Of a DNA stretch of 64,000 nucleotides, positions 9,228-28,678 are shown one piece after another (within the stretch, counting starts at the first letter, position 1; the number at the start of each line of letters is the position of its first letter). Below the pieces are notes generated by a model. It saw only the letters and a program-made list of their open reading frames with translations. It was not told the origin of the DNA and made no database searches. Source of the DNA: an uncultured bacterium (GTDB lineage: Bacteria; Edwardsbacteria; CAYGWX01); NCBI GenBank assembly GCA_964353855.1, contig CAYGWX010000001.1:139389-203388 (forward strand), given 5' to 3'. A program made the translations under genes and the position numbers.

Positions 9228-10682
9228 TTGCCGCAAGCCCTGTCGTTTGAGTTGTCCTCTCCGGGCCGTAGGGGGGTCGCCCTGCCGGACCCCGACGTCC
9301 CGCCCAAGCCCGTTTCCTCCCTGGTCCCGGCGTCCCACCTCCGTCCCGAGGGCCCGGACCTTCCGGAGCTCTCCGAGCCGGACGCGATGCGCCACTTCGT
9401 GAACCTCTCCACCCTGAACCATCACGTGGACAAGGGATTTTATCCCCTGGGGTCCTGCACCATGAAGTACAACCCCAAGGTGAACGAGGATGTGGCCCGG
9501 CTGTGCGGGTTCGGAAACGCCCATCCCCTGCAGACGACCGAGACCGCCCAGGGGACGCTCCGCCTGATGCACGAGCTGGCCCGTGCCCTCTGCGAGATCG
9601 GAGGCCTGGACGAGGTGACTCTGCAGCCCGCGGCCGGAGCGCACGGGGAGATGACCGCGGTGAAGATGGTCCGGGCGTATCACGCCAAGCGGGGCAATCC
9701 CCGGAAGAAAATCCTCATCCCGGACTCCGCGCACGGCACCAACCCGGCCAGCGTGGCCATGACCGGATACCAGGCCGTGACCATACGGTCCAATGCCCAG
9801 GGCCTCCTGGACCCGGGGGAGGTCGCCCAGGCCATGGACGAGGAGGTGGCCTGCCTGATGGTCACCAACCCCAATACCCTGGGCCTGTTCGAAAAGGAGA
9901 TCACAAACGTCGCGGGGATCGTGCACGCCAAAGGCGGGCTGATGTACATGGACGGCGCCAACCTGAACGCCCTCCTGGGCATCGCGCGTCCCGGGGACAT
10001 GGGGTTCGACCTGGTTCATTTCAACCTGCACAAGACCTTCTCCACGCCCCATGGCGGGGGAGGGCCGGGGTCCGGCCCGGTCGGCGTCCAGAAAGGCCTC
10101 ATCCCCTTCCTGCCCGTGCCGAAAGTTAAGGTCAGGGGCCAGGGGGAATACTATCTCGATCACGCGGGCCCGGACTCCATCGGCAAGGTGCACGGGTTCT
10201 ACGGAAACTTCGCGATGATGGTCCGGGCCTACGCCTACATCCGCATCATGGGTGCGGCGGGATTGAATCAGGTCGCCCGCGACGCCATCCTGAACGCCAA
10301 CTATATCCTGGCGCAGCTAAAGGACACGTATCTCTTGCCCTACCCCGGGCCCTGCAAGCACGAGGTCGTGCTCTCCGGAGACTGGCAGAAAGACAGGCAC
10401 GGGGTGAAGACCCTGGACATCGCCAAGCGTCTCCTGGATTTCGGGTTCCATGCCCCGACGATCTACTTCCCGTTGATCGTGCACGAGGCCCTGATGATCG
10501 AGCCCACCGAGACCGAGAGCCGGGAGACGTTGGACGCCTTCATCGCGGCGATGAAAACCATCGCCCGGGAGGCCGAGAGCGATCCGGACAAGGTGAAGGC
10601 CGCGCCGCACAATACCCCGGTCTCCCGCCTGGATGAGGCCCGGGCCGCGCGGGACATGAACATCCGCTACCGGAAGGGATAG
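9228..10682 (+). CDS. gcvPB: Glycine dehydrogenase (decarboxylating) subunit 2
   Basis: [39 protein letters not shown] (PLP lysine), EPTETES. Confidence 0.95.
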
Positions 10683-10683
10683 C

Positions 10684-11043
10684 TTGCCCAACTGGGGCGG
10701 GGCTTTCGAAGAAACCCCCTGGTCGGTTTCTCCCGAGAGACAGAAGGCGCTCATCGAGAAGCTGGCGACCAAGATCGTGGAGATGCGCCTCACCGCTCCG
10801 GCCATCTTCCTTCTGGAATCGTCCAAGCCGCTCTCCTTCCTCGGCAGCCAGGCCCTGGTCTTCCTCCAGCCGGTGGTTCAGGCCGTGTTCCCGTTCAAGG
10901 AATACCAGGAGATCGCGGTCATGCTCGAGGAGCGGGAGAACGTGGAAAGACTGATCGTCGAGATCGAGAGACAGGACGCCGGGGAGAAGGCACCGGGAAA
11001 GAAGGAAACGAATCCACCATCCAGCGAAGGGAAAGCGTCATGA
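10684..11043 (+). CDS. Conserved hypothetical protein
   Basis: Coupled to gcvPB stop; host-like codon usage; PAIFLLESSKPL motif. Confidence 0.75.
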   Translation: MPNWGGAFEETPWSVSPERQKALIEKLATKIVEMRLTAPAIFLLESSKPLSFLGSQALVFLQPVVQAVFPFKEYQEIAVMLEERENVERLIVEIERQDAGEKAPGKKETNPPSSEGKAS

Positions 11044-11354
11044 CCAAGGCTACAGCGAAAGGGTTCTTGCGGGACCACTTCAAAAGGAGAGGGTACCTCA
11101 AGATCAAGAAGCCCTCGCGCACCTCTCACGGAAGCTATGAGCTGCGCTTCTCCACCTCCCTCCCCAAGGAGAAGGCCAAAGTCCTGGAAGCGATGAAGGC
11201 CCTGGGCTTCACGCCCGGCCGGGCCTTCGCCAAGCACTCCCAGACCATCGTGCCCTATTACGGGGCGGAGCAGGTGGAGGCCTTCAAGAAGATGGTGGGC
11301 GTGCGCAAGAAAGCGGCGGCCCCTAAGCGCAAGCGCTTCGGGCGCAGGCGTTAA
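11040..11354 (+). CDS. Small basic hypothetical protein
   Basis: ATGA overlap with upstream gene; K/R-rich. Confidence 0.7.
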   Translation: MTKATAKGFLRDHFKRRGYLKIKKPSRTSHGSYELRFSTSLPKEKAKVLEAMKALGFTPGRAFAKHSQTIVPYYGAEQVEAFKKMVGVRKKAAAPKRKRFGRRR

Positions 11355-11384
11355 ATCATCACGGCGTCCTCTCGAGGAGAAGGC

Positions 11385-13190
11385 ATGAACCTGGATCCCA
11401 ACAAGATTCAATCCATCCTGGCCACGGACTGCGGCTCGACCACGACCAAGGCGATCCTGATCGAGAAACAGGGCGAGAGCTACCGCCTGATCGTGCGCGG
11501 CGAAGCCCCGACCACGGTGGAGGCCCCGTTCGAGGACGTGACCAAGGGGGTCCTGAACGCGGTCCGGGAAGTCGAGGAGCTGGCCGGGCGCAAGATCCTG
11601 GAAGGCGAGCGGATCGTCACGCCCCAGGCGGGCAAGGAGGGCGTGGACCTCTATCTCTCCACCTCCTCGGCCGGAGGGGGCCTGCAGATGATGGTCGCGG
11701 GCGTGGTCAAGACGATGACCGCGGAGAGCGCGGCCCGCGCGGCCCTCGGGGCCGGGGCGATCGTGATGGACACCCTGGCCAGCAACGACGGCCGCCTGCC
11801 CCACGAGCGCATCGAGCGCATCCGCACCCTGCGGCCGGACATGATCCTCCTCTCGGGGGGGATCGACGGGGGCACGATCACGCACGTGGTGGAGATGGCC
11901 GAGCTGATCGCGGCCGCAGACCCCAAGCCGAGGTTCGGGACCGGATACGAACTTCCGGTGATCTACGCCGGAAACAAGGACGCCCGCGGGGCTGTGGAAA
12001 AGACCCTCTCGGCCAAATCGGCCCTGAAGACCGTGGACAACCTGCGGCCGGTGCTGGAGCGGGAGAACCTGGCTCCGGCGCGGAACGCGATCCACGACCT
12101 GTTCATGGAGCACGTGATGGCCCACGCCCCGGGGTACAAGAAGCTGATGTCCTGGACCCCGGTGCCGATCATGCCCACGCCCGGGGCCGTGGGATTGATC
12201 ATCCAGACCGTGGCCGAGCGGGAGAAGATCACGGCCGTGGGGGTGGACATCGGCGGGGCTACCACGGACGTGTTCTCGGTGTTCCAGAACGTCTTCAACC
12301 GGACCGTGTCCGCGAACCTGGGGATGAGCTATTCCATCTCCAACGTGCTGGCCGAGACCGGCCTGGCGAACATCCTGCGCTGGGTGCCGTTCGAGATGGA
12401 CGAAGCCGACCTGCGGAACCGCATCCGCAACAAGATGATCCGCCCGACCACCATCCCGCAGTCCCTGCAGGAGCTCGAGATCGAGCAGGCCATCGCCCGG
12501 GAGGCCCTGCGGCTGGCCTTCATCCAGCACAAGAGCATGGCCGTGGGCCTGAAGGGGGTGCAGCAGGAGCGCACGATCTCGGACGCCTTCGACCAGACGG
12601 CCACGGGCGAGACCCTGATCAACATGATGGACCTGAACATCCTCATCGGGTCGGGCGGGGTCCTGTCCCACGCCCCGCGGAGGGCGCAGTCGGCCCTGAT
12701 GATGATCGACGCCTTCGCCACCTGCGGGGTGACCATGCTGGCCGTGGACTCGATCTTCATGGCCCCGCAGCTGGGCGTGCTCTCCACCGTCCATCCCCAG
12801 GCGGCCACCGAGGTCTTCGACAAGGACTGCCTGATCCGGCTGGGAAGCTCGGTGTGCGCGGTAGGCGAGGGAAAGGAGGGGACGACGCCCTGCTTCAAGA
12901 TCAAGATCACCCGCCCCAGCGGGGAGGTCCTGGAAGGGACGGTCAACGCCGGGCAAATGGCGCTCCTCCCGCTCCCGGTCCTGGAGAAAGCCAGGGCCGT
13001 GATCGAGCCGTCCCGGAACTTCGACCTGGGCGCCGGCAAGGGAAAGGTCCTGGAGACCGAGGTGGAAGGCGGGGTGGTGGGCGTCGTCCTGGACGGCCGG
13101 GGACGGCCGCTGGTCCTGCCCGAGGACAGGGCGAAGCGGGTCCAGAAACTGCAGGAGTGGAACAAGGCCCTGAACATCTACCCCGGTTAA
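11385..13190 (+). CDS. glmL: GlmL/MutL (glutamate mutase L)-like ASKHA ATPase
   Basis: DCGSTTTKA and DIGGATTDV phosphate motifs, STSSAGGGL, MPTPGAV, RTVSANLGM. Confidence 0.8.
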   Translation: MNLDPNKIQSILATDCGSTTTKAILIEKQGESYRLIVRGEAPTTVEAPFEDVTKGVLNAVREVEELAGRKILEGERIVTPQAGKEGVDLYLSTSSAGGGLQMMVAGVVKTMTAESAARAALGAGAIVMDTLASNDGRLPHERIERIRTLRPDMILLSGGIDGGTITHVVEMAELIAAADPKPRFGTGYELPVIYAGNKDARGAVEKTLSAKSALKTVDNLRPVLERENLAPARNAIHDLFMEHVMAHAPGYKKLMSWTPVPIMPTPGAVGLIIQTVAEREKITAVGVDIGGATTDVFSVFQNVFNRTVSANLGMSYSISNVLAETGLANILRWVPFEMDEADLRNRIRNKMIRPTTIPQSLQELEIEQAIAREALRLAFIQHKSMAVGLKGVQQERTISDAFDQTATGETLINMMDLNILIGSGGVLSHAPRRAQSALMMIDAFATCGVTMLAVDSIFMAPQLGVLSTVHPQAATEVFDKDCLIRLGSSVCAVGEGKEGTTPCFKIKITRPSGEVLEGTVNAGQMALLPLPVLEKARAVIEPSRNFDLGAGKGKVLETEVEGGVVGVVLDGRGRPLVLPEDRAKRVQKLQEWNKALNIYPG

Positions 13191-13272: not shown

Positions 13273-14157
13273 ATGCCCATCCGGATCCAGGGAACGCCAT
13301 GGCCCAAGGAGATGGAGGTCTTCCTGCAGGAGACCAAGCGGCAGGCCTTCGTCTGCCTGACGCACATCGTCCAGCCCACGGTGGAGCTCCTGCTCGAAAA
13401 CCTCCCGCCCCGGGTGAAGCTCCGGGTGCTGGTCCGGATCGACAAGATCACCCTGCACGCCGAAAGCCTGAAGCGGCTCATCGACCGCCCGAACTGCGAG
13501 GTGCGGGTCCTGAAGAACCTGAACAGCAAGATCTACCTCCTGGACGGGGAGCTGGCGGTCTTGGCGGGCTCGAACCTGACCCGGGACGGGCTGGAGCACA
13601 ACGTGTCCTTCGACGTCGTGGTGGACGACCGCAAGGCGGCCGGGGAGCTCCTCGCCCGGCTGGAGCAGTACTGGAAGAATGCCGAGGAGGTGAAGGACGT
13701 CTCCGCGGCCCTCCAAAGCAAGAGCCAGGCTTACGGGGCCTGGGTGGACCCGCTCCGGGCCAAGGCCATCGAGTTCCTCTCCTACGAGGACGTGCTGGTG
13801 GAGAGGCTGCGGACCAAGCTCGCGGAGAACCCGGACGATGCCGGCTCCCATCGCCGTCTGGGCGACCTGCTCCGCATCCGGGGCGACCGGGTCGCAGCCA
13901 TGGAGGCCTACCGCCGGGCCCTGAGCCTGGATGAGGACCTGAACGAGGCCCGGGTCTCTCTGGCGAAGTGCCTCTGGGAGCACGGCGACCCGGAGCACTG
14001 CCTGGAGGAGGTCTTCGAGGTCCTGAAAAGGGACAAGGCCAACGCCGACGCCTACTACCTGTCCGCCATCGTCTATGAGAAGCGGGGGGAGGAGTCCATG
14101 GCCGTGGCCGCCCGCAAGGAGTACGAACGGCTGTCCGGAGGCAAAGCCTCGGCTTAA
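13273..14157 (+). CDS. PLD-like domain (degenerate HKD) plus TPR protein
   Basis: LNSKIYLLD...GSNLT resembles HxKxxxxD...GSxN; C-terminal TPR-like helices. Confidence 0.7.
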   Translation: MPIRIQGTPWPKEMEVFLQETKRQAFVCLTHIVQPTVELLLENLPPRVKLRVLVRIDKITLHAESLKRLIDRPNCEVRVLKNLNSKIYLLDGELAVLAGSNLTRDGLEHNVSFDVVVDDRKAAGELLARLEQYWKNAEEVKDVSAALQSKSQAYGAWVDPLRAKAIEFLSYEDVLVERLRTKLAENPDDAGSHRRLGDLLRIRGDRVAAMEAYRRALSLDEDLNEARVSLAKCLWEHGDPEHCLEEVFEVLKRDKANADAYYLSAIVYEKRGEESMAVAARKEYERLSGGKASA

Positions 14158-14222: not shown

Positions 14223-15350
14223 ATGGCTCATGCATATACCCCCGGTCTCCGCGTGACGGAACGCACCGTGCTCCGCAAGGAGCGCCGGCTTCCCCTCAAG
14301 GGCGAGGTGGTGGTCAAGGAGGGGCAGGAGGTCAAGGCCGAGACCATTGTGGCCAAGACCAACCTGCCGGGGTCGGTCCAGACCGTGAACGTGGCCGGGA
14401 TCCTGGGCATCCTGCCCGAGGACGTCTCCGAGTCCATGCTCAAGAAGGTCGGGGACCCGGTCGCCAAGAACGAGGCCATCGCCCAGAGCAAGGGGTTCTT
14501 CGGGCTGTTCAAGTCGCAGTGCAAGGCCCCGGCCGCCGGGACCATCGAGAACGTCTCCACGATCACCGGGCAGGTCATCCTGAGGGAGCCGCCCCTGCCG
14601 GTGGAGATCGCGGCCTACATCGACGGCAAGGTCGTGGAAGTCATCCCCCAGGAGGGGGTGGTGATGGAGACGACCGCGGCCTTCGTGCAGGGCATCTTCG
14701 GGGTGGGAGGCGAGACCACGGGCATCATCGCCATGGCCACGGACGACCCCAAGAGCGTGCTCAGCCCTGAGATGATCAAACCCGAGCACAAGGGCCGGAT
14801 CGTGGTCGGCGGGGCGTTCGTCACCTCCCCCTCCATCGCCCGGGGCATCGAGGTCGGGGCCAAGGCCATCGTGGTGGGCGGGATAGACGACGCGGACCTG
14901 AGGGAGTTCCTGGGCTACGACATCGGGGTCGCCATCACCGGCTCGGAGAAGAAGGGCATCACCCTGGTCATCACCGAGGGGTTCGGAAAGATGGCCATGG
15001 CCCACCGGACCTTCGACCTCCTCAAGTCCAAGCAGGGCTTGAAGGCCTCGGTGAACGGGGCCACCCAGATCAGGGCCGGGGTGATGCGGCCCGAGGTCAT
15101 CGTGCCGCTCATCGGAGCCGGCGCGGTCGCCCGGCCGGACGGCCTGGATGCGGTGCAGGGACTGACCGAGGGCAGCCCGGTAAGGGTCATCCGCGAGCCG
15201 TACTTCGGAAGGCTGGGAAAGGTGAGCGCCCTGCCCTCGGAGCTGCAGAAGCTGGAGACCGAGTCCCACGCCCGGGTCCTGGAGGTGGAGTTCGAGGACG
15301 GCAAACGGGCCATCGTCCCCAGAGCGAACGTGGAAATGATAGAAGGGTAA
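14223..15350 (+). CDS. Conserved hypothetical protein with barrel-sandwich-like motifs and KOW-like C-terminus
   Basis: VKEGQEVKAETIVA, KKVGDPVAKNEAIA, KAPAAGTIENV; C-terminal GSPVRVIREPYFGRLGKV. Confidence 0.85.
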   Translation: MAHAYTPGLRVTERTVLRKERRLPLKGEVVVKEGQEVKAETIVAKTNLPGSVQTVNVAGILGILPEDVSESMLKKVGDPVAKNEAIAQSKGFFGLFKSQCKAPAAGTIENVSTITGQVILREPPLPVEIAAYIDGKVVEVIPQEGVVMETTAAFVQGIFGVGGETTGIIAMATDDPKSVLSPEMIKPEHKGRIVVGGAFVTSPSIARGIEVGAKAIVVGGIDDADLREFLGYDIGVAITGSEKKGITLVITEGFGKMAMAHRTFDLLKSKQGLKASVNGATQIRAGVMRPEVIVPLIGAGAVARPDGLDAVQGLTEGSPVRVIREPYFGRLGKVSALPSELQKLETESHARVLEVEFEDGKRAIVPRANVEMIEG

Positions 15351-15788: not shown

Positions 15789-16436
15789 ATGGCAAAGGTA
15801 AGAGCGCCGTTACACAGCATGGACCTGCGGGGAAGGATGGCCGACGGGTTCGTGTTCTCGGACTGGAAGGGCATCCCCTGGATGAGGACCTTCATCATGC
15901 CCAGCCAGCCCAGGACCGCAAGGAGGGAAGCGATGTGGGCCACCTTCCCCAAGGTCAGTCGGGAATGGGCCAAGCTCACGGATTCGGACCGGACCAGGTG
16001 GGACGAGTTCGCCGTCCTGATCAAGCCCATGAACCACACCCTGGGACGAAAAGGCAACTGGTCGGGTTTCGACGCCTACGTGTCCATGAACACCGTCCTG
16101 GGAGACGCGGGACTGGCCCTCGTCACCCTGCCCCCGGCACTGCCCCTGCCCAACCCGCTGGAGAGGTTCAGACTCAGAAACCCAGCCCCGGGAGTCGTCA
16201 GAATAAGGTGGGAGCTGTTACCAGCCGGGACCCTCGTAGACCTCTGGCTCAACCAAACCAAAGCCTCCCGCAAAGCCTACCCCTCCAAGTTCAACCACCT
16301 GGTCTATGCCGACGGCACCACCGGCCTCCACGTCCTCACCGGAATCCCAGCCGGAATGAGGGTGGCCGTGAAAGGAAGGGTCGTAAGGCCGGATGGAGGA
16401 AAGTCGTATTACGTGCAGGCGGAGATCATAGTCTAA
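15789..16436 (+). CDS. Hypothetical basic protein, module protein copy 2
   Basis: 215 aa, colinear paralogue of 536-1183. Confidence 0.85.
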   Translation: MAKVRAPLHSMDLRGRMADGFVFSDWKGIPWMRTFIMPSQPRTARREAMWATFPKVSREWAKLTDSDRTRWDEFAVLIKPMNHTLGRKGNWSGFDAYVSMNTVLGDAGLALVTLPPALPLPNPLERFRLRNPAPGVVRIRWELLPAGTLVDLWLNQTKASRKAYPSKFNHLVYADGTTGLHVLTGIPAGMRVAVKGRVVRPDGGKSYYVQAEIIV

Positions 16437-16442
16437 CCCCCC

Positions 16443-16472
16443 TTGACAGGAAGCCCGCGCTTCTGATATAGT
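16443..16472 (+). promoter_or_regulatory. Sigma70-like promoter of putative ncRNA, copy 2
   Basis: TTGACA-N18-TATAGT. Confidence 0.7.
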
Positions 16473-16478
16473 AAGGCC

Positions 16479-16620
16479 ACAACAAGGCAGCCAAGCAGGG
16501 AGTCAGACAAACCTGGTTGAGGAGGAAGCCTTCAATGAATCAGACGCTGGAAGAAGCCCCGGAAACGGGGCGGGTGAAGAAGAGAAGCCATCACCCAACA
16601 CCCAGCGTCCTTTCCTTTGC
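16479..16620 (+). ncRNA. Putative structured non-coding RNA, copy 2
   Basis: Same stems as 1297-1440; loops GAAA vs TTTC and agaagagaagcca vs aagacagctaaca. Confidence 0.6.
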
Positions 16621-16749
16621 CCTGGTACTGCGGTTAGTCGGTTGGACAGTTGGGCGGTTAAACGGTAACGGCAAAGACTAACCAAGACAACAAGCAACCA
16701 AACAAAAGAGGCGGGGCTTCGCCCCGCCCCCCACGTAGGAGGGAAAACA

Positions 16750-17373
16750 ATGGCACGGTCAAATATTACGATTGAGGGTTTGAAAAACATAAGAGACCAA
16801 GTCGTTTTTGACCTGACAAATGCAGCACACATTGACAATGTGTTTTGGCAGATCCAAGCCATTTTTGAAAATAACCCCGAAATAAATACAGGCGGTATTT
16901 TTCAAGAATGGTTAGTGGATACTTACGTTGATTCAATTACTGTTCGACTTCGCCGCCTTGCAGATAAAGGAAAGAAGAAGATATCTTTATGGCGTCTTCT
17001 TGAAGATTGGAAACGAGACATCGAAAACATTAGGCCTAAGTCAGCAACTAAAGCTGAAATAACAGCTAAACAACAAGAATTAACTAATGCTTTAAATCGT
17101 GTTGAAAGCTATGCTAACTCTAACATAGCCCACCGCGCCCAGAAACCACAGGTTACTGAGCTAACTTATCTTGAGGTCCGCAAAGCTTTGATTTCTACTT
17201 TCAAGATATTTAATTGGTGTTCTTATTTGTTAACTAAATCCGTGTGGGCCACTCCTGTCCCATTGCTTGAGGAAAGTTGGCTTGCTATTTTCAAAGTACC
17301 TTGGCTTAAAGATTCGGCCCCTCCACCTTATAAACACCTCGATAAATTACTCAAGGAGGCTAATGATGGGTAA
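16750..17373 (+). CDS. AT-rich hypothetical protein, possibly AbiU2/HEPN-like (cargo)
   Basis: All-helical; LRRLAD...ISLWRLL and N..IAH resemble AbiU2-type HEPN proteins; much lower GC than flanks. Confidence 0.6.
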   Translation: MARSNITIEGLKNIRDQVVFDLTNAAHIDNVFWQIQAIFENNPEINTGGIFQEWLVDTYVDSITVRLRRLADKGKKKISLWRLLEDWKRDIENIRPKSATKAEITAKQQELTNALNRVESYANSNIAHRAQKPQVTELTYLEVRKALISTFKIFNWCSYLLTKSVWATPVPLLEESWLAIFKVPWLKDSAPPPYKHLDKLLKEANDG

Positions 17374-17470
17374 TGGTATGGTGGCAGCTTGGGGGCAGCG
17401 GTAACAAACCGGTCAGGCGGGGCTTCGTTCCGCCCCCCAAGAAATCCTAAAGCATAGGAGATAGTAAGAA

Positions 17471-18874
17471 ATGAAAAGAATAACAACGATCCTCTGGATT
17501 GTTACTCTTTTCTTCGCTTCCTTCACCCATGCCCAGCAGAAGTGGACCAGGATCTACGGAGGGACAGGCGACGATAGAGGCAACTCTGTCCAGCAGACCT
17601 CAGATGGCGGCTACATCATTGCTGGATATACTACTTCCTACGGGGCAGGGCACGATGATGTCTACCTCGTCAAAACTAACGCTTTAGGGGATACCCTCTG
17701 GACCAGAACCTATGGAGGGTCAGGTTGGGACGAGGGCAACTCCGTCCAGCAGACCTCGGATGGGGGCTATATCGTCGCGGGTTATACTACGTCAGGTGAT
17801 GCTGATGTCTACCTTATAAAAACAAATACCACAGGGGATACCCTCTGGACAAGAACCTATGGAGGGAACTTCGACGATCAAGGATACTTTGTCCAGCAGA
17901 CCACGGATGGGGGCTATATCATCACAGGATCCACCTACTCCTATGGGATAGGCAACTACCTTGTCTACCTTATCAAGACCAATGCCTCCGGGGATACCCT
18001 CTGGACCAGGACCTACGGAGGAACGCGCGGCGATTGGGGCTTCTCCGTACAGCAGACCATAGATGGAGGCTACGTCATCGCAGGAAGGACAGACTCCTTC
18101 GGCGCAGGCAGCGAGGATGTCTACCTCATCAAGACTAATACCTCAGGAGCTACCCTCTGGACCAAGACCTACGGGGGGACAAACGAAGATGAGGGCTGGT
18201 CCGTACAACAAACTTCTGACACGGGCTACATCGTTGCGGGATGGACCCGTTCGTTCGGAATCAGTTATCAGGTCTACCTGATCAAGACCAACGCCGGGGG
18301 TGATACCCTCTGGACACGAACCTACGTAGGGTTGAGCGGCGCTGAGGGCTACTCCGTACAGCAGACCTCGGAAGGGGGCTACATCGTCGCAGGATTCACA
18401 GGCGCCTTCCCTTATGATGTCTACCTCATAAAGACGAATGCTTTAGGGGATACGCTCTGGACCAAGACTTACGGAGGGACGAACAGCGATGAGGGCCGCT
18501 CCGTCAAGCAGACCTTGGATGGGGGCTACATCATCACTGGTTATACCGATTCTTACGGGAACGGCAACCCAGATGTCTACCTCATCAAGACGGATGCGAA
18601 CGGGAATATCGGAGTAGAAGAGAACGCAGAGGTTAGAGGTCAGAGGGTAGAGGGAAGAATAACGGCGAAACCAAATCCCTTTTCATCCTTCGCCACTCTT
18701 CCCGGGCATGAGGCCGAGCGGTTCAGCCTCTACGACGTCTCCGGACGGAAGGTCGGGACCTTTCGGGGCGACCGGGTCGGGGAGGGGCTGGCGCCGGGGG
18801 TGTACTTCGTGTGTAAGGGCACGGCATGCCGTGCCCCTACCACCGCGCCCCTGCGCATCGTGAAAGTGAGGTAA
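17471..18874 (+). CDS. Secreted beta-propeller (WTRTYGG...QQTSDGGYI repeats) with short C-terminal sorting-like domain
   Basis: Signal peptide; seven ~50-aa repeats; C-terminal domain closely similar to that of 4306-5526. Confidence 0.88.
   Translation: MKRITTILWIVTLFFASFTHAQQKWTRIYGGTGDDRGNSVQQTSDGGYIIAGYTTSYGAGHDDVYLVKTNALGDTLWTRTYGGSGWDEGNSVQQTSDGGYIVAGYTTSGDADVYLIKTNTTGDTLWTRTYGGNFDDQGYFVQQTTDGGYIITGSTYSYGIGNYLVYLIKTNASGDTLWTRTYGGTRGDWGFSVQQTIDGGYVIAGRTDSFGAGSEDVYLIKTNTSGATLWTKTYGGTNEDEGWSVQQTSDTGYIVAGWTRSFGISYQVYLIKTNAGGDTLWTRTYVGLSGAEGYSVQQTSEGGYIVAGFTGAFPYDVYLIKTNALGDTLWTKTYGGTNSDEGRSVKQTLDGGYIITGYTDSYGNGNPDVYLIKTDANGNIGVEENAEVRGQRVEGRITAKPNPFSSFATLPGHEAERFSLYDVSGRKVGTFRGDRVGEGLAPGVYFVCKGTACRAPTTAPLRIVKVR
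18813..18840. repeat. REP-like palindrome inserted in frame within CDS
   Basis: gtaagggcacggcatgccgtgcccctac (GTAG-type REP architecture). Confidence 0.7.
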
Positions 18875-19074: not shown

Positions 19075-20253
19075 ATGCGGAAAGCCCTGATTACCCTGGC
19101 CTTCCTCGCCCTGGTTGCTTCGCTTACCCAAGCGAACTCCGACGCCCCCCTGCCCATCGCCCCCGCCACGAACGTCATCGCCCAGGACACCCCGAACGAC
19201 GGGGGGAACTCCATAGACCTGCGATGGACCCTGTCCGCGGATGACCGGGCCGGGGGCGGAAGAATCACGGGCTACGAGATCCTGCGGGCCGACTCCCCGG
19301 ACGGCCCGTTCGACAAGGTCGGGAGCGTGGGGACCGGGGAGGCCAGCTACACCGACGCCAGCGTCCGGGACGGAAAGCCCTATTATTACAAGATCGCGGC
19401 CATCGGCCCGGAGCAGGGCGCGGAAAGCGCGGCTTCCGAGCCGGTGAAATCCTCCCCCTCCTGGTTCAACCTCCAGAGGGTGAACATGCTCATCGCCGTG
19501 ATCCTGGCCTGCGGGCTGGTGCTGTGGTTCATCTTCCACGCCAAGCAGGGCAAGGAGCTGTTCATCCGGCGGATCGCCGGGCTCTCGGCCGTGGACGAGG
19601 CCCTGGGACGGGCCACGGAGATGGGCAGGCCGGTCCTGTTCCTGCCCTCGGGAGGCCTGGCCGCAGTCTCGGACATCCAGACTCTGGCGGGCCTGATCAT
19701 CCTCGGGCAGGTGGCCAAGAAGACCGCGGAGTTCGACACCCCGCTCCTGGTCCCGGTCTCGGACCCCCTGGTGATGACCCTGGCCCGGGAGATCGTGAAG
19801 ACCTCCTACACCGACGCCGGCAGGCCGGACGCGTTCCGGCCGGAAAACATCCGCTACCTGACCAACGAGCAGTTCGCCTACACCGCCGGGGTGGACGGGA
19901 TCATGCTGCGCGAGAAGCCGGCCGCGAACTTCATGATCGGGACGTTCTACGCCGAGTCCCTGATCCTGGCCGAGACCGGCTACTCCACGGGGGCGATCCA
20001 GATCGCGGGCACGGCGCAGATCTCGCAGCTGCCTTTCTTCGTGGCCGCCTGCGACTACACCCTGATCGGGGAGGAGATCTACGCGGCTTCGGCCTACCTC
20101 TCCAGGGAGCCGGTGCTCCTGGGAAGCCTCAAAGGGCAGGACTGGGGCAAGGCGATCGCCATTCTGGCTGTCGCCCTGGGCGTGATCCTGGAAACAGTTG
20201 CGCTCAAGGCCCCGGCCTTGCATTTCTTCGTGAACCTGTTCACCTCGCGATGA
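19075..20253 (+). CDS. Fibronectin type III plus DUF6754-like membrane protein (set 1, gene A)
   Basis: Signal peptide, FN3-like domain, IRRIAGL.AVDEA.GRATEMG, AESLILAETG, QLPFF...CDYTLIGEE.YAASAYL. Confidence 0.85.
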   Translation: MRKALITLAFLALVASLTQANSDAPLPIAPATNVIAQDTPNDGGNSIDLRWTLSADDRAGGGRITGYEILRADSPDGPFDKVGSVGTGEASYTDASVRDGKPYYYKIAAIGPEQGAESAASEPVKSSPSWFNLQRVNMLIAVILACGLVLWFIFHAKQGKELFIRRIAGLSAVDEALGRATEMGRPVLFLPSGGLAAVSDIQTLAGLIILGQVAKKTAEFDTPLLVPVSDPLVMTLAREIVKTSYTDAGRPDAFRPENIRYLTNEQFAYTAGVDGIMLREKPAANFMIGTFYAESLILAETGYSTGAIQIAGTAQISQLPFFVAACDYTLIGEEIYAASAYLSREPVLLGSLKGQDWGKAIAILAVALGVILETVALKAPALHFFVNLFTSR

Positions 20254-20386: not shown

Positions 20387-21049
20387 ATGAAACGGCAGAT
20401 CCCCCTCATCCTCACGTTCATCATGGGCCTGTGGGCCGTGGTGGCCTTCTTCGTGCCCCACCGCTACGTGGCGGACTCGGCCCAGCAGTTCCAGAGGTGG
20501 TACCTGATCATCCTGGCCTTCACCACGGTGATCGGGGTGGGCAACCTGATCATGGTCCACGGCGAGAAGATCCAGCGCCGGCAGAAAGGCTGGGGCTTCA
20601 GCGTGGTGCTGATCGCGATGATCCTGGTGATGGCCCTGTTCGGGTACTTCGGGGGCGTCCAGGACGGGACCCGCTACTACTGGCTGTACATCCACGTGAT
20701 GTCCAACCTGGGGGCGGCGATGTTCTCGCTCCTGGCCTTCTTCGTGGCCTCGGCCGCCTACCGCGCCTTCCGGGCGCGGAACAAGGAGGCCACCCTGCTT
20801 CTGGTCGCGGCCGTGATCGTGATGTTCGGCCGGGTGCCGGTGGGAAGCTACCTCTACCGCCTGATCCCCTGGGTCGGGAGCCACTACCCCAATTTCATGA
20901 ACGACCTCACGGGCTGGATCATGAACTTCCCCAACACCGCCGGGCAGCGGGGGATCATGATCGGGGCGGCCCTGGGCGCGGTGTCCATGGCGTTGAGGAT
21001 GCTCCTCGGGATCGAGCGGTCGTACCTCGCGGCCAGCGGGGGGAAGTAA
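20387..21049 (+). CDS. Polytopic membrane protein (set 1, gene B)
   Basis: MFSLLAFF.ASAAYRAFRAR, LLGIER; paralogue of 25736-26371. Confidence 0.85.
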   Translation: MKRQIPLILTFIMGLWAVVAFFVPHRYVADSAQQFQRWYLIILAFTTVIGVGNLIMVHGEKIQRRQKGWGFSVVLIAMILVMALFGYFGGVQDGTRYYWLYIHVMSNLGAAMFSLLAFFVASAAYRAFRARNKEATLLLVAAVIVMFGRVPVGSYLYRLIPWVGSHYPNFMNDLTGWIMNFPNTAGQRGIMIGAALGAVSMALRMLLGIERSYLAASGGK

Positions 21050-21064: not shown

Positions 21065-21556
21065 ATGACGATTCAGTTATTGGTTACCGGGGGAACATTT
21101 GACAAGGAATATAACGAGCTGGATGGATCTCTTGTCTTCAAGGATACGCACATCCAGGAGATGCTCAGGCTCGGTCGTTGCAAGGTGAACGTTGACGTTC
21201 GCACCCTGATGATGATCGACAGTATGGAAATGACGGAGATGGAGCGAGGAATCATATTAGAAAACTGCCGGAAGTGCAAAAGGGAACGGATCGTCATCAC
21301 CCATGGCTCCGATTCTATGGAGGTGACGGCCCAAACCCTCGGGCAGGCCATTAAAAACAAAACCATCGTGCTCACCGGGGCCATGGTCCCATATAAGTTC
21401 GGAAGTTCGGATGGGCTTTTCAATCTGGGAAGTGCCTTGGCATTTGCCCAGAGTCTTCCGCACGGGGTGTTTGTGGCGATGAATGGCCGTTGTTTCGCCT
21501 GGAACAAGGTCCGAAAGGAAAAGAAAACCGGCGAGTTTGAAGAGATCAGCGATTGA
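21065..21556 (+). CDS. Short asparaginase (N-terminal domain only) protein
   Basis: TGGTFDK, ITHGSDSM, VLTGAM motifs. Confidence 0.85.
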   Translation: MTIQLLVTGGTFDKEYNELDGSLVFKDTHIQEMLRLGRCKVNVDVRTLMMIDSMEMTEMERGIILENCRKCKRERIVITHGSDSMEVTAQTLGQAIKNKTIVLTGAMVPYKFGSSDGLFNLGSALAFAQSLPHGVFVAMNGRCFAWNKVRKEKKTGEFEEISD

Positions 21557-21585
21557 GCTACTACCAGGAGGTGGACCGCTTGTCC

Positions 21586-21630
21586 ATCGGCATTGAGCGC
21601 TCCTACCTGGCGGCGAACGGGGGGAAGTGA
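21586..21630 (+). pseudogene. Remnant duplicate of the 3' end of gene B
   Basis: Encodes IGIERSYLAANGGK* versus LGIERSYLAASGGK* at 21005-21049. Confidence 0.75.
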
Positions 21631-21711
21631 CGAATGAGCAGGGGCAAGGCGATCGTCCTGGCTGTTTTCGCGGTTTGGCCGTTGGCGTATATCATTAGGT
21701 TTTGAAGTCAA

Positions 21712-22218
21712 ATGAAGCTTACGCACATAGCGTTTATCGGTCTCCTTGCCGGTTTGGTCGCATGCTCCAAGCAATCGGCAAGCCCGCCAGACCCATTGAA
21801 TGGTGCCTGGCGGCTAGTGTCGATGCACTTGAACTTGGCAGATGGGAGGGACGTCGAGGTTCCCGTTCACGAAAGCCTTTTCCTCTTTGCAGATGGGTAC
21901 TACTCTATCGGGTATGCGTTCGGGGACAGCAGTCCCGCCCCGTACGCAGAGCGGTGGCACCCGAATGACAGCGAAAAGGTGGCGCGGTTCAGCTCTGTGA
22001 TCGTGAACGCCGGATCGTATCAGCTCAGAGGCTCTCAGCTGGATGCCCGTCCCCTTTTTGCGCTTGCACCGGAGTTTGTGGGCGGCAAAGGGGTCTTCTC
22101 GTTTGCATTCACAGCGGACACGTTAGAGTTGAAGTGGGAGAACAGCATCGCTTTCGACGGGCTGGAATATCCGTCACGAGGTGCCGTGACGCATCTCCGG
22201 CTCGTGCGTAAAAACTGA
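21712..22218 (+). CDS. Lipocalin-like lipoprotein (cassette-like)
   Basis: Lipobox LVAC, LNGAWRLVS motif, beta-rich. Confidence 0.7.
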   Translation: MKLTHIAFIGLLAGLVACSKQSASPPDPLNGAWRLVSMHLNLADGRDVEVPVHESLFLFADGYYSIGYAFGDSSPAPYAERWHPNDSEKVARFSSVIVNAGSYQLRGSQLDARPLFALAPEFVGGKGVFSFAFTADTLELKWENSIAFDGLEYPSRGAVTHLRLVRKN

Positions 22219-23801: not shown

Positions 23802-24476
23802 ATGAACTGGACGGTGATCGGCATCTGGATCGGGGCGCTCCTGACCCTGTGCATCTACTCCTTCCTGTACAAGGACAACCCCTTCTACAAGTTCGCGGAG
23901 CACGTCTATGTGGGCATCTCGGCGGGCTACCTCCTGGCCCAGGACTTCTGGATCCAGCTCCGGCCCAACCTGTTCCTGCCCCTGTGGAACGACTACGCCC
24001 AGGGCCAGGTCCATTTCGGGTTCATCCCGGCGCACTGGTACCTGTTCATCCCCGGGATCCTCGGGCTCCTGGTGTTCACGATCTTCATCCCCAAGGTCTC
24101 CTGGATGTTCCGCTACACCCTGGCCTTCACCGTGGGGGTGTTCTCGGGACTGGCGATCACGGCCGAGCTCTCGTCCCGGGTCCTGCCCCAGATCGAATCC
24201 ACGATACAGCCCCTGCTGGCCTTCCCGGCCGGGCACTTCTCAGCCTGGGGCACTTTCTGCAACCTCGTCCTCGTGGCCGGGGTGCTCTCCACCCTGGTCT
24301 ACTTCTTCTTCTCCAAGGAGCACAAGGGCTTCATCGGGGCCGGGGCCAAGCTGGGCATCTGGTACCTGATGGTCGCCTTCGGAGCGGCCTTCGGGTACAC
24401 GGTCATGGCGCGGATCTCTCTCCTCATCGGGCGGATGCAGTTCCTCCTGGGGGACTGGCTGCATCTGATGAGATGA
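23802..24476 (+). CDS. Polytopic membrane protein (set 1, gene D)
   Basis: SFLYKDNPFYKFAEH, FGYTVMARISLLIGR; paralogue of 27186-27842. Confidence 0.85.
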   Translation: MNWTVIGIWIGALLTLCIYSFLYKDNPFYKFAEHVYVGISAGYLLAQDFWIQLRPNLFLPLWNDYAQGQVHFGFIPAHWYLFIPGILGLLVFTIFIPKVSWMFRYTLAFTVGVFSGLAITAELSSRVLPQIESTIQPLLAFPAGHFSAWGTFCNLVLVAGVLSTLVYFFFSKEHKGFIGAGAKLGIWYLMVAFGAAFGYTVMARISLLIGRMQFLLGDWLHLMR

Positions 24477-24490
24477 CCGTTTCCTAAGGG

Positions 24491-24538: not shown

Positions 24539-24570
24539 AACCTCTCGTTGCCAACTCTCTCTTCCTTTTA

Positions 24571-25734
24571 ATGCGGACGCTTAGTTTGTTTAGGGATCAT
24601 CGTAAGCACCAGGGCCTGAAGGCCCTGTTGCTCTTTGTGCTGCTGGCTTTCCTGGCCCCGCCCTCCTCTGCAGCCTTAGCGCCTCCGGAAAGCATCAAGG
24701 CCTTCGATACCCCGAACGATGCCGGAGGTACGATCACCATCACCTGGAAGGCCTCCCCGGACGACAGCCAGCTTTTGGGCTATTCGGTGAAGCGCAGTGC
24801 AAAGCCGGAGGGGCCATATCAGGAGGCCGGGATCGTGCTCAAGGGCCAGGAGGAGTACCAGGACGGGGAGCTCGCCGACGGACAGACTTACTACTACCGC
24901 GTGGACGCCCGGGTCCTGGGAGACTCGGCCTCGTCCGCCCTTTCCGGGCCGGCCATGCCTTCGGCCCAGTGGTTCAATCTGGGGCGGGTAAGCGTCTTAG
25001 CCTTCATCGTGCTCTTCGCGGGGGTGGTACTCTGGTATATTGCCCGGGCGAAAAAAGGGGAGAAACTCTTCATCCGCCGGATCGCCGGGCTGGACGCGGT
25101 GGATGAGGCCGTGGGACGGTCCACGGAGATGGGCCGGCCGTTGATGTTCATCTCGGGCCTCCTGTCCATCGATGACGTCACCACCCTGGCCGCGCTCACC
25201 ATCCTGGGGCGGGTGGCCCGCAAGGCCGCGGAGTACGATACCCCGATCCTGGTGCCCTGCACCGACCCCCTGGTGATGACCACGGCGCAGGAGATCGTGA
25301 AGCAATCCTATTCCGAGGCCGGCAGGCCGGACGCCTACCGGGAGGGGAACATCTCCTACCTGACCTACGACCAGTTCGGATACGCCGCGGGATGCGACGG
25401 GATAATGCTCCGCGAGAAGCCCGGGGCGGTGTTCCTGCAGGGGTATTTCTACGCCGAGTCCCTGATCCTGGCCGAGACCGGGCATTCCATCGGGGCGATC
25501 CAGATCGCGGGCACCACCGCGGTGGACCAGCTGCCCTTCTTCGTGACGGCCTGCGATTACACCCTGATCGGGGAGGAGATGTACGCGGCGTCCTCCTATC
25601 TGACCCGGGAGCCGATCATGCTCGGGACCTTGAAGGGTGAAGACCTGATGAAGCTCCTGATCGTCCTGGCGTTGACGGTCGGGGTGGTGCTGGAGACCTT
25701 CGGGAAGCACTGGATCCAGGCTTTATTCCAATAA
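24571..25734 (+). CDS. Fibronectin type III plus DUF6754-like membrane protein (set 2, gene A)
   Basis: Colinear paralogue of 19075-20253. Confidence 0.85.
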   Translation: MRTLSLFRDHRKHQGLKALLLFVLLAFLAPPSSAALAPPESIKAFDTPNDAGGTITITWKASPDDSQLLGYSVKRSAKPEGPYQEAGIVLKGQEEYQDGELADGQTYYYRVDARVLGDSASSALSGPAMPSAQWFNLGRVSVLAFIVLFAGVVLWYIARAKKGEKLFIRRIAGLDAVDEAVGRSTEMGRPLMFISGLLSIDDVTTLAALTILGRVARKAAEYDTPILVPCTDPLVMTTAQEIVKQSYSEAGRPDAYREGNISYLTYDQFGYAAGCDGIMLREKPGAVFLQGYFYAESLILAETGHSIGAIQIAGTTAVDQLPFFVTACDYTLIGEEMYAASSYLTREPIMLGTLKGEDLMKLLIVLALTVGVVLETFGKHWIQALFQ

Positions 25735-25735
25735 C

Positions 25736-26371
25736 ATGTTGAAGCGAGAAATTCCGCTCCTGATCACTTTCCTGACCGGCCTTCTGATGGTGGTGCAGTT
25801 CTTCGTGCCCCACCGTCCGATCGGGCAGATCGGGACCGGGGTCCTGACCTGGTATTCGATCATCGCAGGGTTCACCCTGCTTTTGGGCATCGACAGCCTG
25901 GTCAGTATGCACCTCAAGAAACTTCAGCGGAAGCAATCAGGCTGGGGCTACAGCATCATGCTCATCCTGGGGCTGCTCCTGGCCCTGGGCCTAGGCATCT
26001 TCTCCGAGATCCGATACGGCAGCGCGCTGGCCTTCGGGTCCCCGTTCATGTATCTTTACACCTACATGATGGTCCCCCTGCAGGCCACGATGTTCTCGCT
26101 CCTGGCATTCTTCATCGCCTCGGCGGCCTACCGGGCCTTCCGGGCCCGGACCCTGGAGGCCTCCCTGCTCCTGGTGGCGGCGGTGATCGTGATGCTCGGC
26201 CGGGTTCCCCTGGGCGCGGCTATCTGGGGCAAGTTCCCGATCCTGGCGGAGTGGATTATGACCGCCCCGAACGCGGCCGCGACCCGGGGCATCCTGATCG
26301 GCGTCTCCCTGGGAGCCCTGGCGATGAGTTTACGCATCCTCCTGGGCATAGAGCGGACCTACCTCTCGTGA
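25736..26371 (+). CDS. Polytopic membrane protein (set 2, gene B)
   Basis: Paralogue of 20387-21049. Confidence 0.85.
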   Translation: MLKREIPLLITFLTGLLMVVQFFVPHRPIGQIGTGVLTWYSIIAGFTLLLGIDSLVSMHLKKLQRKQSGWGYSIMLILGLLLALGLGIFSEIRYGSALAFGSPFMYLYTYMMVPLQATMFSLLAFFIASAAYRAFRARTLEASLLLVAAVIVMLGRVPLGAAIWGKFPILAEWIMTAPNAAATRGILIGVSLGALAMSLRILLGIERTYLS

Positions 26372-27189
26372 ACTGGCTCGCGAAGCTGGAGAAAATAGAC
26401 CGACGGTGGATCTTCTTGGGCGTGGCCCTGGTGGTCGCCGCGCCCCTGCTCCTCGGGCTCAAGACCAGCGTGGACATCACCCCGCCGGTGAAAAACACCT
26501 TCGAGGCCATCGACCGCCTGCCCCCGGGCTCGGTGGTCATGGTCTCCATCGACTACGACGCCTCGACCATGCCCGAGAACCAGCCCATGCTCCTGGCCGT
26601 GCTGAGGCACGCCTTCCAAAAGAACTTGAAGATCATCCTGATGGGCCACTGGCCCCTGGGCCTGCCGGTGGGCACCCTGGGCCTGGACCAGGTAGCCCGG
26701 GAGATGCACAAGACCTACGGGACGGACTATGTGAACCTGGGATTCCGGCCCGGGACGGCCGCGGTGATGGTCAACCTGGGCACGGAGATCCGCAACGTCT
26801 TTCCCTCGGATTACAGAGGGGTATCTCTCGATTCCATCCCGCTCACCAGGGACGTTCACAACTACAACGACATCCGGCTCCTGGTCGGGATCGAAGCCGG
26901 GGACACCTACGAGTTCTGGATCATCTACGTCCAGGCCCGGTTCGGGCTCAAGATGGCCATGGGGACCACCGCGGTCATGGCCCCGACGGCGTATAAATAC
27001 CTGCAGTCCGGACAGCTCGTCGGGCTGATCGGAGGACTGAAGGGCGCCGCGGAGTACGAGAGTCTCATCGCCCATCCCGGGATCGGGCTGGCCGGTATGC
27101 CGGCCCAGTCCGCGGGACACCTGCTCATAATCCTGTTCATCCTCCTGGGCAATATCGGCTATTTCCTGAAGCGGAGGAAGAAGGCATGA
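26368..27189 (+). CDS. Membrane-anchored protein (set 2, gene C)
   Basis: GTG start overlapping upstream stop; paralogue of 22869-23732. Confidence 0.85.
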   Translation: MNWLAKLEKIDRRWIFLGVALVVAAPLLLGLKTSVDITPPVKNTFEAIDRLPPGSVVMVSIDYDASTMPENQPMLLAVLRHAFQKNLKIILMGHWPLGLPVGTLGLDQVAREMHKTYGTDYVNLGFRPGTAAVMVNLGTEIRNVFPSDYRGVSLDSIPLTRDVHNYNDIRLLVGIEAGDTYEFWIIYVQARFGLKMAMGTTAVMAPTAYKYLQSGQLVGLIGGLKGAAEYESLIAHPGIGLAGMPAQSAGHLLIILFILLGNIGYFLKRRKKA

Positions 27190-27842
27190 CCGTGGTCGGC
27201 ATCTGGATCGCGGCCTTCCTGACCCTGGCCATCTTTTCGTTCCTCTACAAGGACAACCCCTTCTACAAGCTCGCCGAACACCTCTATGTCGGGGTGTCCG
27301 CCGGATACTACGTGATCTACGTCTGGTCCACGGACATCCGGCCCCTGCTGTTCAACCCCTTCGTCCAAACCCACGCCCAGACCGGAAGCTGGGGGGCAGC
27401 GCTTACCCAGAATGCCGTGCTGTTCATCCCGGCCGTATTGGGGGTCGTCATGCTGCTCCGGGCCTTTCCAAAGATCGCCTGGGTCTCGCGCTGGCCGATC
27501 TCCTTCCTGGTGGGGATCGGGGCCGGGCTCGCGATCACCGCCGATGTCCAGGGATACCTTTTCCCCCAGGTGCAGGCCACCCTGGTGCCGCTGTGGGTCC
27601 GCGGGTCCCTGTTCACCACGTTCAACAATGTCCTGCTGTTCGTGGGAGTCGTGGGGACGGTGGGGTATTTCTACTTCTCCCGGGAGCACAAGGGGTTCCT
27701 GGGCGGGCTTTCCAAAGTCGGGATCCTGTTCATCATGGTCGCGTTCGGGGCCTCCTTCGGATACACCGTGATGGCCCGTATCTCTTTACTCATCGGACGG
27801 ATCCACTTCCTCGCCGCGGACTGGCTGCACCTCATCCGGTAA
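27186..27842 (+). CDS. Polytopic membrane protein (set 2, gene D)
   Basis: ATGA overlap; paralogue of 23802-24476. Confidence 0.85.
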   Translation: MTVVGIWIAAFLTLAIFSFLYKDNPFYKLAEHLYVGVSAGYYVIYVWSTDIRPLLFNPFVQTHAQTGSWGAALTQNAVLFIPAVLGVVMLLRAFPKIAWVSRWPISFLVGIGAGLAITADVQGYLFPQVQATLVPLWVRGSLFTTFNNVLLFVGVVGTVGYFYFSREHKGFLGGLSKVGILFIMVAFGASFGYTVMARISLLIGRIHFLAADWLHLIR

Positions 27843-27844
27843 GG

Positions 27845-28678
27845 ATGTCCTCCTGGCGATTTCTGGACACCGGGCCCGGGGAGGCGACCTGGAACATGGC
27901 CGTGGACGTGGCTCTGGCGGAGTCCGTCCGGAAGGGAGAGTCCCTCCCCGTGCTCAGGCTTTACACCTGGTCCCAGCCGGCCATCTCCTGCGGGCATTTC
28001 CAAAAGATCGAGCAGGAACTTGACCTCCAGGCCTGCACACGGAACGGGATAGCCGTGGTCCGGAGGCCGACCGGGGGGCGGGCGGTCCTGCACGGGAACG
28101 ACCTCACCCTTACCGTCGTGGCCAAAGAGACCGAACTCCGGATCGGAGCCAGCGTCGAGGAGACCTATCGGAGGATTGCAGAAGCCATTGCCTGTGGACT
28201 CAAAGGCCTGGGCATCCAGGTCGACTTGGTGCGCTCCCAGGCCTCGGGGAAGGAGATCCTGTCCTCGCCGTCCTGTTTTGCTTCCAAGGCGAGATACGAG
28301 CTTGCCCTTCAAGGCAGGAAAGCCTTCGGGTGTGCCCAGAGGAGGTGGGATGGCATCGTCCTCTCCCAAGGGTCGCTTCAGCTTTGGGGGGATGGGGAGG
28401 TTCCACCGGAGTTAAGGAGGCCGGGGCCTAAATCCGCTGCCCTCAGGAATACATGCAGAAAAGCGGCCACGCCGGGGGAGGACAAGGAAAAAGTCAAAGA
28501 AGGGATTGCCGGGGGTTTTCGAAGGACATTCGGGATTGAGCTTTTCCCCGACGGGCTTAGCGAAGAGGAGAAGGGGGCTGCCGGAAAGCTCCTCCCGATG
28601 CACCGCCCTCCCCGAAGAGACGAGGATAACCTGACCGAGAGGGAGGGAGGACAGAGTTTTTCCTACATTCGCCCTTGA
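27845..28678 (+). CDS. Lipoate-protein ligase / octanoyltransferase (LplA/LipM family)
   Basis: NMAVD, LRLYTW, VRRPTGGRAVLH, GRK..GCAQRR. Confidence 0.88.
   Translation: MSSWRFLDTGPGEATWNMAVDVALAESVRKGESLPVLRLYTWSQPAISCGHFQKIEQELDLQACTRNGIAVVRRPTGGRAVLHGNDLTLTVVAKETELRIGASVEETYRRIAEAIACGLKGLGIQVDLVRSQASGKEILSSPSCFASKARYELALQGRKAFGCAQRRWDGIVLSQGSLQLWGDGEVPPELRRPGPKSAALRNTCRKAATPGEDKEKVKEGIAGGFRRTFGIELFPDGLSEEEKGAAGKLLPMHRPPRRDEDNLTEREGGQSFSYIRP

Follow-up and report, generated by a model that had tools for sequence, protein, structure and literature searches.

What does an ATPase of the GlmL family do in a genome that lacks the B12-dependent enzyme for which databases label it a helper, and what ties it to the membrane proteins encoded beside it? 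The question is raised by a gene run in a 64,000-nucleotide stretch of DNA (hereafter the window) from an uncultured bacterium of the Edwardsbacteria. All the named genes of this run, from gcvPB to a lipoate-protein-ligase family gene, lie on the forward strand at the places given in the list of open reading frames, and family scans confirm them. Comparative analysis delineated a core of seven genes, namely a small protein, a long GlmL-type ATPase, a partner protein with barrel-sandwich, swivelling and KOW domains, and a set of four membrane proteins (A-B-C-D), which apparently constitute a real, widespread and undescribed system. A coupling of the GlmL-type ATPase with a membrane complex in an undescribed system had been proposed in an earlier note made from the letters of the window (the original prediction), and is supported by genome-wide co-occurrence, a seven-gene operon in Nitrospirota, natural fusions and the lack of glmE. 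The chances seem to us evenly balanced that this is a primary active transporter of a new class, or another machine working across the membrane, whose motor would be an actin/Hsp70-fold ATPase with its partner and not one of the ABC, P-type or rotary kind; a single such unit would serve as many as seven exchangeable four-protein modules, or more. With slightly less than even confidence we tentatively specify it as an importer that is driven by ATP and built of modules, several of which, each specific for its substrate, would be powered by one ATPase.

The source genome is 87.6% complete. It encodes the ATPase and the partner once each and A-B-C-D four times; two of these sets are on contig C53 and, like the conserved small gene at 10684..11043, had been missed by the original prediction. 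All 19 genomes of the phylum have DUF6754 (PF20539, the family of the A proteins), the partner and PF13941 (the family of the ATPase), and most of them show two to five DUF6754 matches to one ATPase. Across the Zixibacteria class DUF6754 is found in 121 of 121 genomes (2-9 matches, mostly 5) and the ATPase in 119, with a single match in 112. The partner matches at least 590 stretches of species genomes, the best 80 of which were kept; among 50 of these 80 genomes, 49 hold DUF6754 in one to seven copies. A sample of 101 Nitrospirota genomes includes 14 with both the ATPase and DUF6754, within about 3.5 kb of each other, one with the ATPase only and 86 with neither. Eight of these 14 loci were fetched, and all eight read small protein-ATPase-partner-A-B-C-D-MEMO with no gcv gene; this compact single-copy seven-gene operon renders the system directly testable. 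Poribacteria keep all three blocks, though dispersed. The gene-neighbourhood survey suggested with the original prediction thus finds the genes co-occurring across phyla, and the system is near-universal in several uncultured phyla, present in Nitrospirota and core-like in whole classes. Natural fusions were recovered of the ATPase with the partner in one locus, of C with D twice and of B with C once, and the C domain is lodged inside B six times; five open frames of 868-954 amino acids (aa) in the Zixibacteria class may be the same ATPase-partner fusion. The fused protein of the one locus (L049, G018:C130; 952 aa) is a second, diverged ATPase paralogue joined to a partner lacking the KOW domain. 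Two A-B 'fusions' (P0279, P0283) were not counted, as they look like frameshift artefacts at the junction, and an apparent fusion of A to an S49 peptidase was rejected because it crosses an unresolved stretch. Subunit C forms 5,435 clusters at 50% identity and the partner has at least 8,000 homologues; the closest named homologues are from Candidatus Edwardsbacteria (67-68%).

The ATPase (11385..13190; 601 aa) is encoded once in the genome (one tblastn match), matches PF13941 at 412.5 bits against a cut-off of 27 and bears a C-terminal extension of about 120 aa. Its motifs DCGSTTTK (residues 15-22), DIGGATTD (288-295) and GSGG (422-425) are invariant in 46 of 46 sequences, and we take them to be the phosphate-1, phosphate-2 and adenosine motifs of the ASKHA (actin/Hsp70/sugar-kinase) group. 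On this motif evidence the protein carries ASKHA nucleotide-binding motifs, an actin fold and ATP hydrolysis being predicted; no PDB sequence match was recovered at E<=1. It is about 70% identical across phyla, whereas GcvPB from the same loci is less conserved (56-63%). The GlmL/MutL and Or-4 proteins (PF13941, NF040745, NF040744, TIGR01319) are of the same ATPase family, and PMC4682846 describes MutL/GlmL as a chaperone for reactivating glutamate mutase. Were the ATPase an ordinary GlmL that reactivates a B12 mutase and has nothing to do with the membrane genes, the PF13941 match would be explained, and the genome does carry a methylmalonyl-CoA-mutase-type cluster on C15. However, that cluster (named by reading its sequences) has its own MeaB-like gene, and the ATPase co-occurs tightly with DUF6754 and travels with the partner and the membrane modules. 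It is 601 aa long as against 462 in GlmL, 27% identical to GlmL of E. coli O157 over 445 columns, and under all three NCBIfam cut-offs for GlmL and Or-4 (222.6 of 475, 157.1 of 204.05 and 200.7 of 600). The original prediction had noted that the ATPase has no glutamate mutase beside it in the window, and this extends genome-wide: glutamate mutase E is absent above cut-off from the source genome, from all 19 genomes of the phylum and from 38 other genomes hand-picked among those holding the system, in a search whose positive control, GlmE of E. coli O157, was found at 712.9 bits. Lysine/ornithine aminomutase alpha was likewise found in none of the 19 genomes, by a search without a positive control. 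The ATPase hence belongs to the GlmL Pfam family but is not a GlmL by equivalog score or by context, and its being an ordinary mutase reactivator, largely refuted by these genome searches, retains hardly any probability. As a separate observation, six Zixibacteria-type loci (L086, L102, L111, L114, L123 and L128) have a 246-aa protein with a signal-peptide-like start between the ATPase and the partner, and the one that was scanned gave no Pfam match.

The topology of the membrane module was predicted from hydropathy and the positive-inside rule. A1 (19075..20253) is predicted to comprise a signal peptide, an outer Fn3 domain and two transmembrane helices flanking an inner DUF6754 domain; both A1 and its paralogue A2 (24571..25734) are full members of PF20539 (395.1 and 391.5 bits, cut-off 27), a family to which no function is attached. 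B (B1, 20387..21049; B2, 25736..26371) has six predicted transmembrane helices, with the ASAAYRAFRAR loop predicted inside. C (C1, 22869..23732; C2, 26368..27189, whose GTG start overlaps the B2 stop) has two helices around a Rossmann-like alpha/beta domain predicted to lie outside, as judged by hydropathy and the model of a C-D homologue. D (D1, 23802..24476; D2, 27186..27842) has five clear helices and a likely sixth, and D1 carries the YKDNPFYKFAEH motif. B2, C2 and D2 were identified as paralogues by alignment. The motifs highlighted in the original prediction recur in the alignment consensus, namely DYTLIGEE (42 homologues), ASAAYRAFRAR (40), GAAEYE (37) and DNPFYKxAEH (33). B, C and D have no Pfam or NCBIfam match; PDB sequence searches gave only Fn3 matches for A and only weak ones for C and the partner. 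When A was compared with C, and B with D, by sequence profile, the probabilities stayed below 7%, and below 1% with deeper domain-only alignments. The predicted outer position of the C domain is supported by its insertion in the outer variable loop of B in six homologues and by a CARDB insert, and the outer sites also accept FG-GAP, WD40, TPR, PDZ, HEAT and PQQ-propeller domains. Comparison of the genome's paralogues indicates that, within the predicted topology, conservation is one-sided: the best-kept inner segments are 67-92% identical (A domain 67%, B loop 83%, D loop 92%) and the outer parts 17-40% (C domain 40%, Fn3 40%, loops 17-39%), with two short inner loops less conserved at 28% and 44%.

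A natural C-D fusion, modelled on the C-D fusion alignment, was predicted to form one unit with a predicted template modelling score (pTM) of 0.76. Its C domain is a Rossmann-like sandwich (best Z 9.8, root-mean-square deviation (rmsd) 3.7, 140 residues aligned), for which Foldseek and VIA recovered generic Rossmann folds and no specific relative. The resemblance of this domain to RCK/TrkA and DsrE-like folds (Z 8-9.8) might suggest that the module is a gated channel or a sensor spanning the membrane, and that the ATPase does not power it but remodels it, as a chaperone like the B12-dehydratase reactivase would. The pairing of an ATPase with a swivelling domain, on the partner or fused, likewise echoes the glycerol/diol dehydratase reactivase, which according to PMC7674605 has an Hsp70-like ATPase domain together with a swivelling domain. 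Yet the Z values are those of generic Rossmann matches with no clear leader, and no output domain such as a kinase or a DNA-binding domain travels with the core in the loci examined. The system further differs from the reactivase in that its swivelling domain belongs to another protein, separate or fused at the C-terminus, which also has barrel-sandwich and KOW domains; no link to a B12 dehydratase was seen, and the target is likely the membrane module. We thus regard a remodelled channel or sensor as rather unlikely, with a small chance of being correct.

The original prediction spoke of a duplicated complex. Two complete paralogous sets are indeed present, with A, B, C and D 57, 49, 41 and 51% identical, respectively; they are ancient paralogues and not a recent duplication. 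Phylogenetic analysis of 90 A domains (a quick tree with midpoint root, supports being those of the Shimodaira-Hasegawa-like approximate likelihood ratio test, SH-aLRT, and therefore read without a direction of module movement) places A1 among the ATPase-adjacent sets of relatives (support 100, 81% identity) and joins A2 to the set that four relatives have in their V/A-ATP synthase operon (SH-aLRT 97). The pair on C53 groups (support 92) with tandem sets in the FAD/iron-sulfur (FeS) oxidoreductase cluster of relatives, and in two other relatives an A1-type set occupies the V/A-ATP synthase slot. These groupings and slot swaps indicate that the modules are old and mobile between loci. In all six loci of this kind that were fetched (L194, L196, L198 and L200-L202), a V/A-type ATP synthase operon has one set lodged between its genes for subunits C and F, mostly with two uncharacterized genes of about 100 and 185 aa. 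This placement, together with the RnfC/NqrA-type barrel-sandwich domains of the partner, would be expected of an ion-pumping or energy-conserving complex, the latter role having been part of the original prediction. Several observations speak against it: the genome's own V/A-ATPase operon has no module (subunit F directly follows C), the slot is held by different paralogues in different genera, and the 15 hydrophobic segments detected hold only three conserved polar residues, none of them acidic. The Pfam scan also recovered no flavin, NADH or FeS-binding family. An ion-pumping or energy-conserving complex has therefore only a slim chance of being the answer. Among the other settings of the module, two or three tandem sets are embedded in a cluster of 2Fe-2S, FAD oxidoreductase, ferredoxin, BFD and DAO genes in L193, L195, L197 and L199, which resembles proline or opine dehydrogenases, and in L190 a set stands directly 3' of genes for HPr and enzyme I of the phosphotransferase system (PTS) and a phosphoglucose-isomerase-type gene.

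The small soluble protein h119 (10684..11043), the first gene of the core, has homologues in 43 of 100 loci searched and precedes the ATPase in 8 of 8 Nitrospirota loci; seven of its columns are invariant in 33 sequences, and it matches no Pfam or NCBIfam family. The partner (14223..15350; 375 aa) is a single-copy gene, likewise without a Pfam or NCBIfam family over cut-off. Its AlphaFold2 model (predicted local distance difference test 84, pTM 0.73) comprises barrel-sandwich hybrid domains, a swivelling beta/beta/alpha domain and a KOW/SH3 domain. The swivelling domain matches swivel domains in VIA at Z 9.0-8.4 (best rmsd 3.1, 107 residues aligned), residues 49-124 match the N-terminal domain of NqrA (Z 7.9), RnfC (7.6) and the biotin carrier BCCP (6.7), and the KOW domain is matched at Z 7.8; RnfC_N scores a sub-threshold 18.3 bits against a cut-off of 25.6. 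No histidine is conserved in the swivelling domain, which speaks against a phosphohistidine carrier like the swivels of PTS enzyme I and PPDK, H3 alone being conserved at >=80% in 64 sequences. The biotinyl/lipoyl-like hairpins perceived in the original prediction are thus borne out as barrel-sandwich hybrids but lack the carrier motif: the DKA/MKM-type hairpin motif, which we take as the signature of a lipoyl or biotinyl lysine, is absent from the partner. Its hairpin tip reads SKGFFGLFKS, the hairpin lysines are not invariant (K90 in 55 of 64 sequences, K97 in 57 of 64), and the gene is not among the six PF00364 matches of the genome; the proposed search for a lipoylated lysine thus gave no such motif in the sequence.

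These features bear on whether the system serves glycine cleavage or lipoate metabolism as a dedicated accessory, the partner being a lipoyl carrier. The adjacency which prompts this idea is regular near home: counting loci long enough to tell, the core has gcvPB upstream of it in 11 of the phylum's 12 loci, in 7 of 7 from Eisenbacteria and in 3 of 3 from Fermentibacteria, the ligase lies downstream in 15 of 16 and 5 of 5 loci, and GcvP is encoded somewhere in 5 of 5 genomes checked. Elsewhere, however, gcvPB is upstream in 1 of 7 WOR-3-type loci, 0 of 12 Zixibacteria (counting four Ignavibacteria-titled loci which fall in that class sample), 0 of 10 Poribacteria and 0 of 8 Nitrospirota, so that over the 78 outside loci it precedes the core in 16 of the 50 that are informative. 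On long contigs holding both, gcvP is more than 1 Mb from the ATPase and partner genes (G055, G067, G259 and G231). The source genome has a true GcvH on C11, where gcvT, gcvH and gcvPA lie while gcvPB alone stays with the ATPase block, and the ligase keeps its place next to the partner in loci that have lost the module to another site. Given that the adjacency is lineage-bound, gcvP distant, GcvH elsewhere and the sets mobile, the specific glycine/lipoate tie of the original prediction is unsupported, and a glycine-cleavage accessory has a very slim chance of being correct. The adjacency is likely gene order inherited in a few related phyla, perhaps reflecting loose co-regulation; the system likely works independently of glycine breakdown, and a looser tie to amino-acid or peptide catabolism is possible. 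As to the dispersed genes, gcvPA is at G000 C11:472-3369, and C13 carries a homologue of the 140-aa membrane gene that separates gcvPB from the small protein in Eisenbacteria.

The copy pattern, co-occurrence, fusions and one-sided conservation fit a shared cytoplasmic motor with cargo-specific modules. The gene content, copy numbers, co-occurrence, fusions and invariant nucleotide-binding motifs are direct observations; the inner placement of the A domain, the outer placement of the C domain, and the folds of C and the partner are predictions. A single ATPase with its partner proteins would dock on the conserved, predicted inner face of any module, and each four-protein module would import a different nutrient, the outer faces differing by cargo. 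Judged by neighbouring genes the cargo would most probably be peptides or amino acids: an FAD/FeS amino-acid-oxidase-type cluster adjoins the module in 4 of 4 such loci, other neighbours include M29 and S9 peptidases, AsnA, formiminotransferase and an ATP-binding cassette (ABC) binding protein with permeases, and the window itself has an asparaginase-domain gene. Several considerations weigh against the importer. The neighbours are of many kinds (genes for V/A-ATP synthase, tol-pal, metK, PTS, transketolase and MEMO also occur), the amino-acid signal is a raw listing of neighbours, the Nitrospirota loci have no catabolic neighbours, and as modules swap loci between genera the genes around them say little about cargo. 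Retention that is nearly universal (121 of 121 genomes) suits a housekeeping role as well as nutrient uptake, and the genomes counted are kin, so that the counts are not independent events. The C-D model, compared mainly through its C part, matches no solved transporter fold, and no ASKHA ATPase is known to drive a solute transporter.

Actin-fold ATPases such as MreB, FtsA and PilM act with membrane partners, and the ATPase might similarly act through the module on periplasmic or wall structures, as a machine for envelope maintenance or trans-envelope force. Core-like retention in the Zixibacteria class and the Fn3 and propeller tethers on A would suit such a role, as would the partner gene preceding tolQ-tolR-tolA(-tolB-pal-cpoB) in eight loci (L086, L102, L111, L112, L114, L118, L122 and L123; tol genes labelled by reading the sequences). 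This tol-pal link is nevertheless confined to Zixibacteria-type and Calditrichota loci, the system is missing in 86 of 101 Nitrospirota, and the presence of three to seven old paralogues whose outer faces vary suits substrate diversity better. We therefore consider an envelope machine unlikely, if with a real chance of being right.

For the importer the closest analogy lies elsewhere. Group II energy-coupling factor (ECF) and MsiK/MsmX-type ABC importers share one ATPase among many membrane units, and the system resembles them in having one motor, many paralogous membrane units and a conserved inner and variable outer face. Unlike these importers, the system shows no P-loop ABC ATPase, either in the scan of 27 proteins or in the Nitrospirota operon of seven genes, and the membrane proteins have no Pfam, NCBIfam or PDB sequence match to permeases or S-components; the system may thus work like the shared-ATPase importers, without being a member of them. 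With Rnf and Nqr the likeness is limited to the barrel-sandwich hybrid domain which the partner shares with RnfC and NqrA (Z 7.6-7.9, 64 residues); relative to the Rnf, Nqr and Mrp pumps B, C and D gave no match, the partner has only its sub-threshold RnfC_N score, and by Pfam the membrane proteins are unrelated to RnfA/D/E. A literature search covering material other than subscription papers and supplements, a scope that may bear on novelty, found no paper naming DUF6754 or PF13941 and no description of the system. If ATP-driven transport is correct, the system would represent a new type of motor for membrane transport and may explain how uncultured bacteria that ferment peptides and amino acids feed. 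The window adds to this picture that the glycine-cleavage setting is not required and that its two modules are old paralogues which move between loci.

The original prediction regarded the whole run as one translationally coupled operon. Tight spacing (-4 to +2 nucleotides) is found only in gcvPB-h119-h104 and in A2-B2-C2-D2-ligase, and the notion of a single operon does not hold, as seven unrelated genes break the run (at 11040, 13273, 15789, 16750, 17471, 21065 and 21712), with gaps of up to 650 nucleotides. The ends are flanking host genes outside the core: gcvPB (9228..10682) matches NF003346 at 738.8 bits against a cut-off of 441, and the lipoate-protein-ligase family gene (27845..28678) matches PF21948 at 99.8 bits but is under every NCBIfam cut-off. 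The ATPase block contains two passengers, the uncharacterized 104-aa protein h104 (11040-11354) and a PLD/TPR protein (13273-14157). A further insert, at 15789..18874, comprises an uncharacterized multicopy 215-aa gene, a HEPN/AbiU2 gene at 16750 (GC content 0.39) and a secreted repeat protein gene at 17471, and was not seen at the corresponding place in relatives. Set 1 is divided between B1 and C1 by the asparaginase-domain gene (21065) and a lipocalin-like gene (21712), which together span 21065..22218, whereas B and C are adjacent in relatives. The 104-aa, PLD/TPR, 215-aa and asparaginase genes, which were among the queries against 100 related loci, have no tblastn match there. Four of the seven inserted genes are lower in GC content (0.39-0.57 as against 0.62-0.67). 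No PHROG match was recovered for nine proteins, and the partner occurs in no plasmid record searched. Promoter-like sites precede gcvPB, 15789, 16750, A1 and C1, and a terminator-like site precedes A1; these are consensus matches only, 12 in number as compared with 4.7 +/- 2.4 in shuffles. In contigs of close relatives from public runs, 3-25 letters stand in place of the A1-B1 and C1-D1 spacers, indicating that these pairs are normally tight.

Short intergenic elements at 20340-20376 and about 24490-24540 reach a very high depth in public contigs and have many loose ends there, as would a widespread repeat that has inserted between A1 and B1 and between D1 and A2. The 215-aa protein has no Pfam, NCBIfam or PHROG match but 25 tblastn matches across the genome at 25-89% identity, with copies in the window at 15789-16436, 536-1183 and about 43825-44430. 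The 15789 copy stands after short tandem repeats at about 15540-15640 and before the low-GC AbiU2 gene, and the 536 copy precedes a DNA-methyltransferase-like gene; the family is possibly mobile or cassette-associated. Downstream of the run, a 12/12 promoter-like site at 28675 precedes a block of genes (28742-31771) for a DUF4388 protein, two proteins of roadblock-like type and two small membrane proteins; this block comes after the ligase in 15-16 loci of the phylum.

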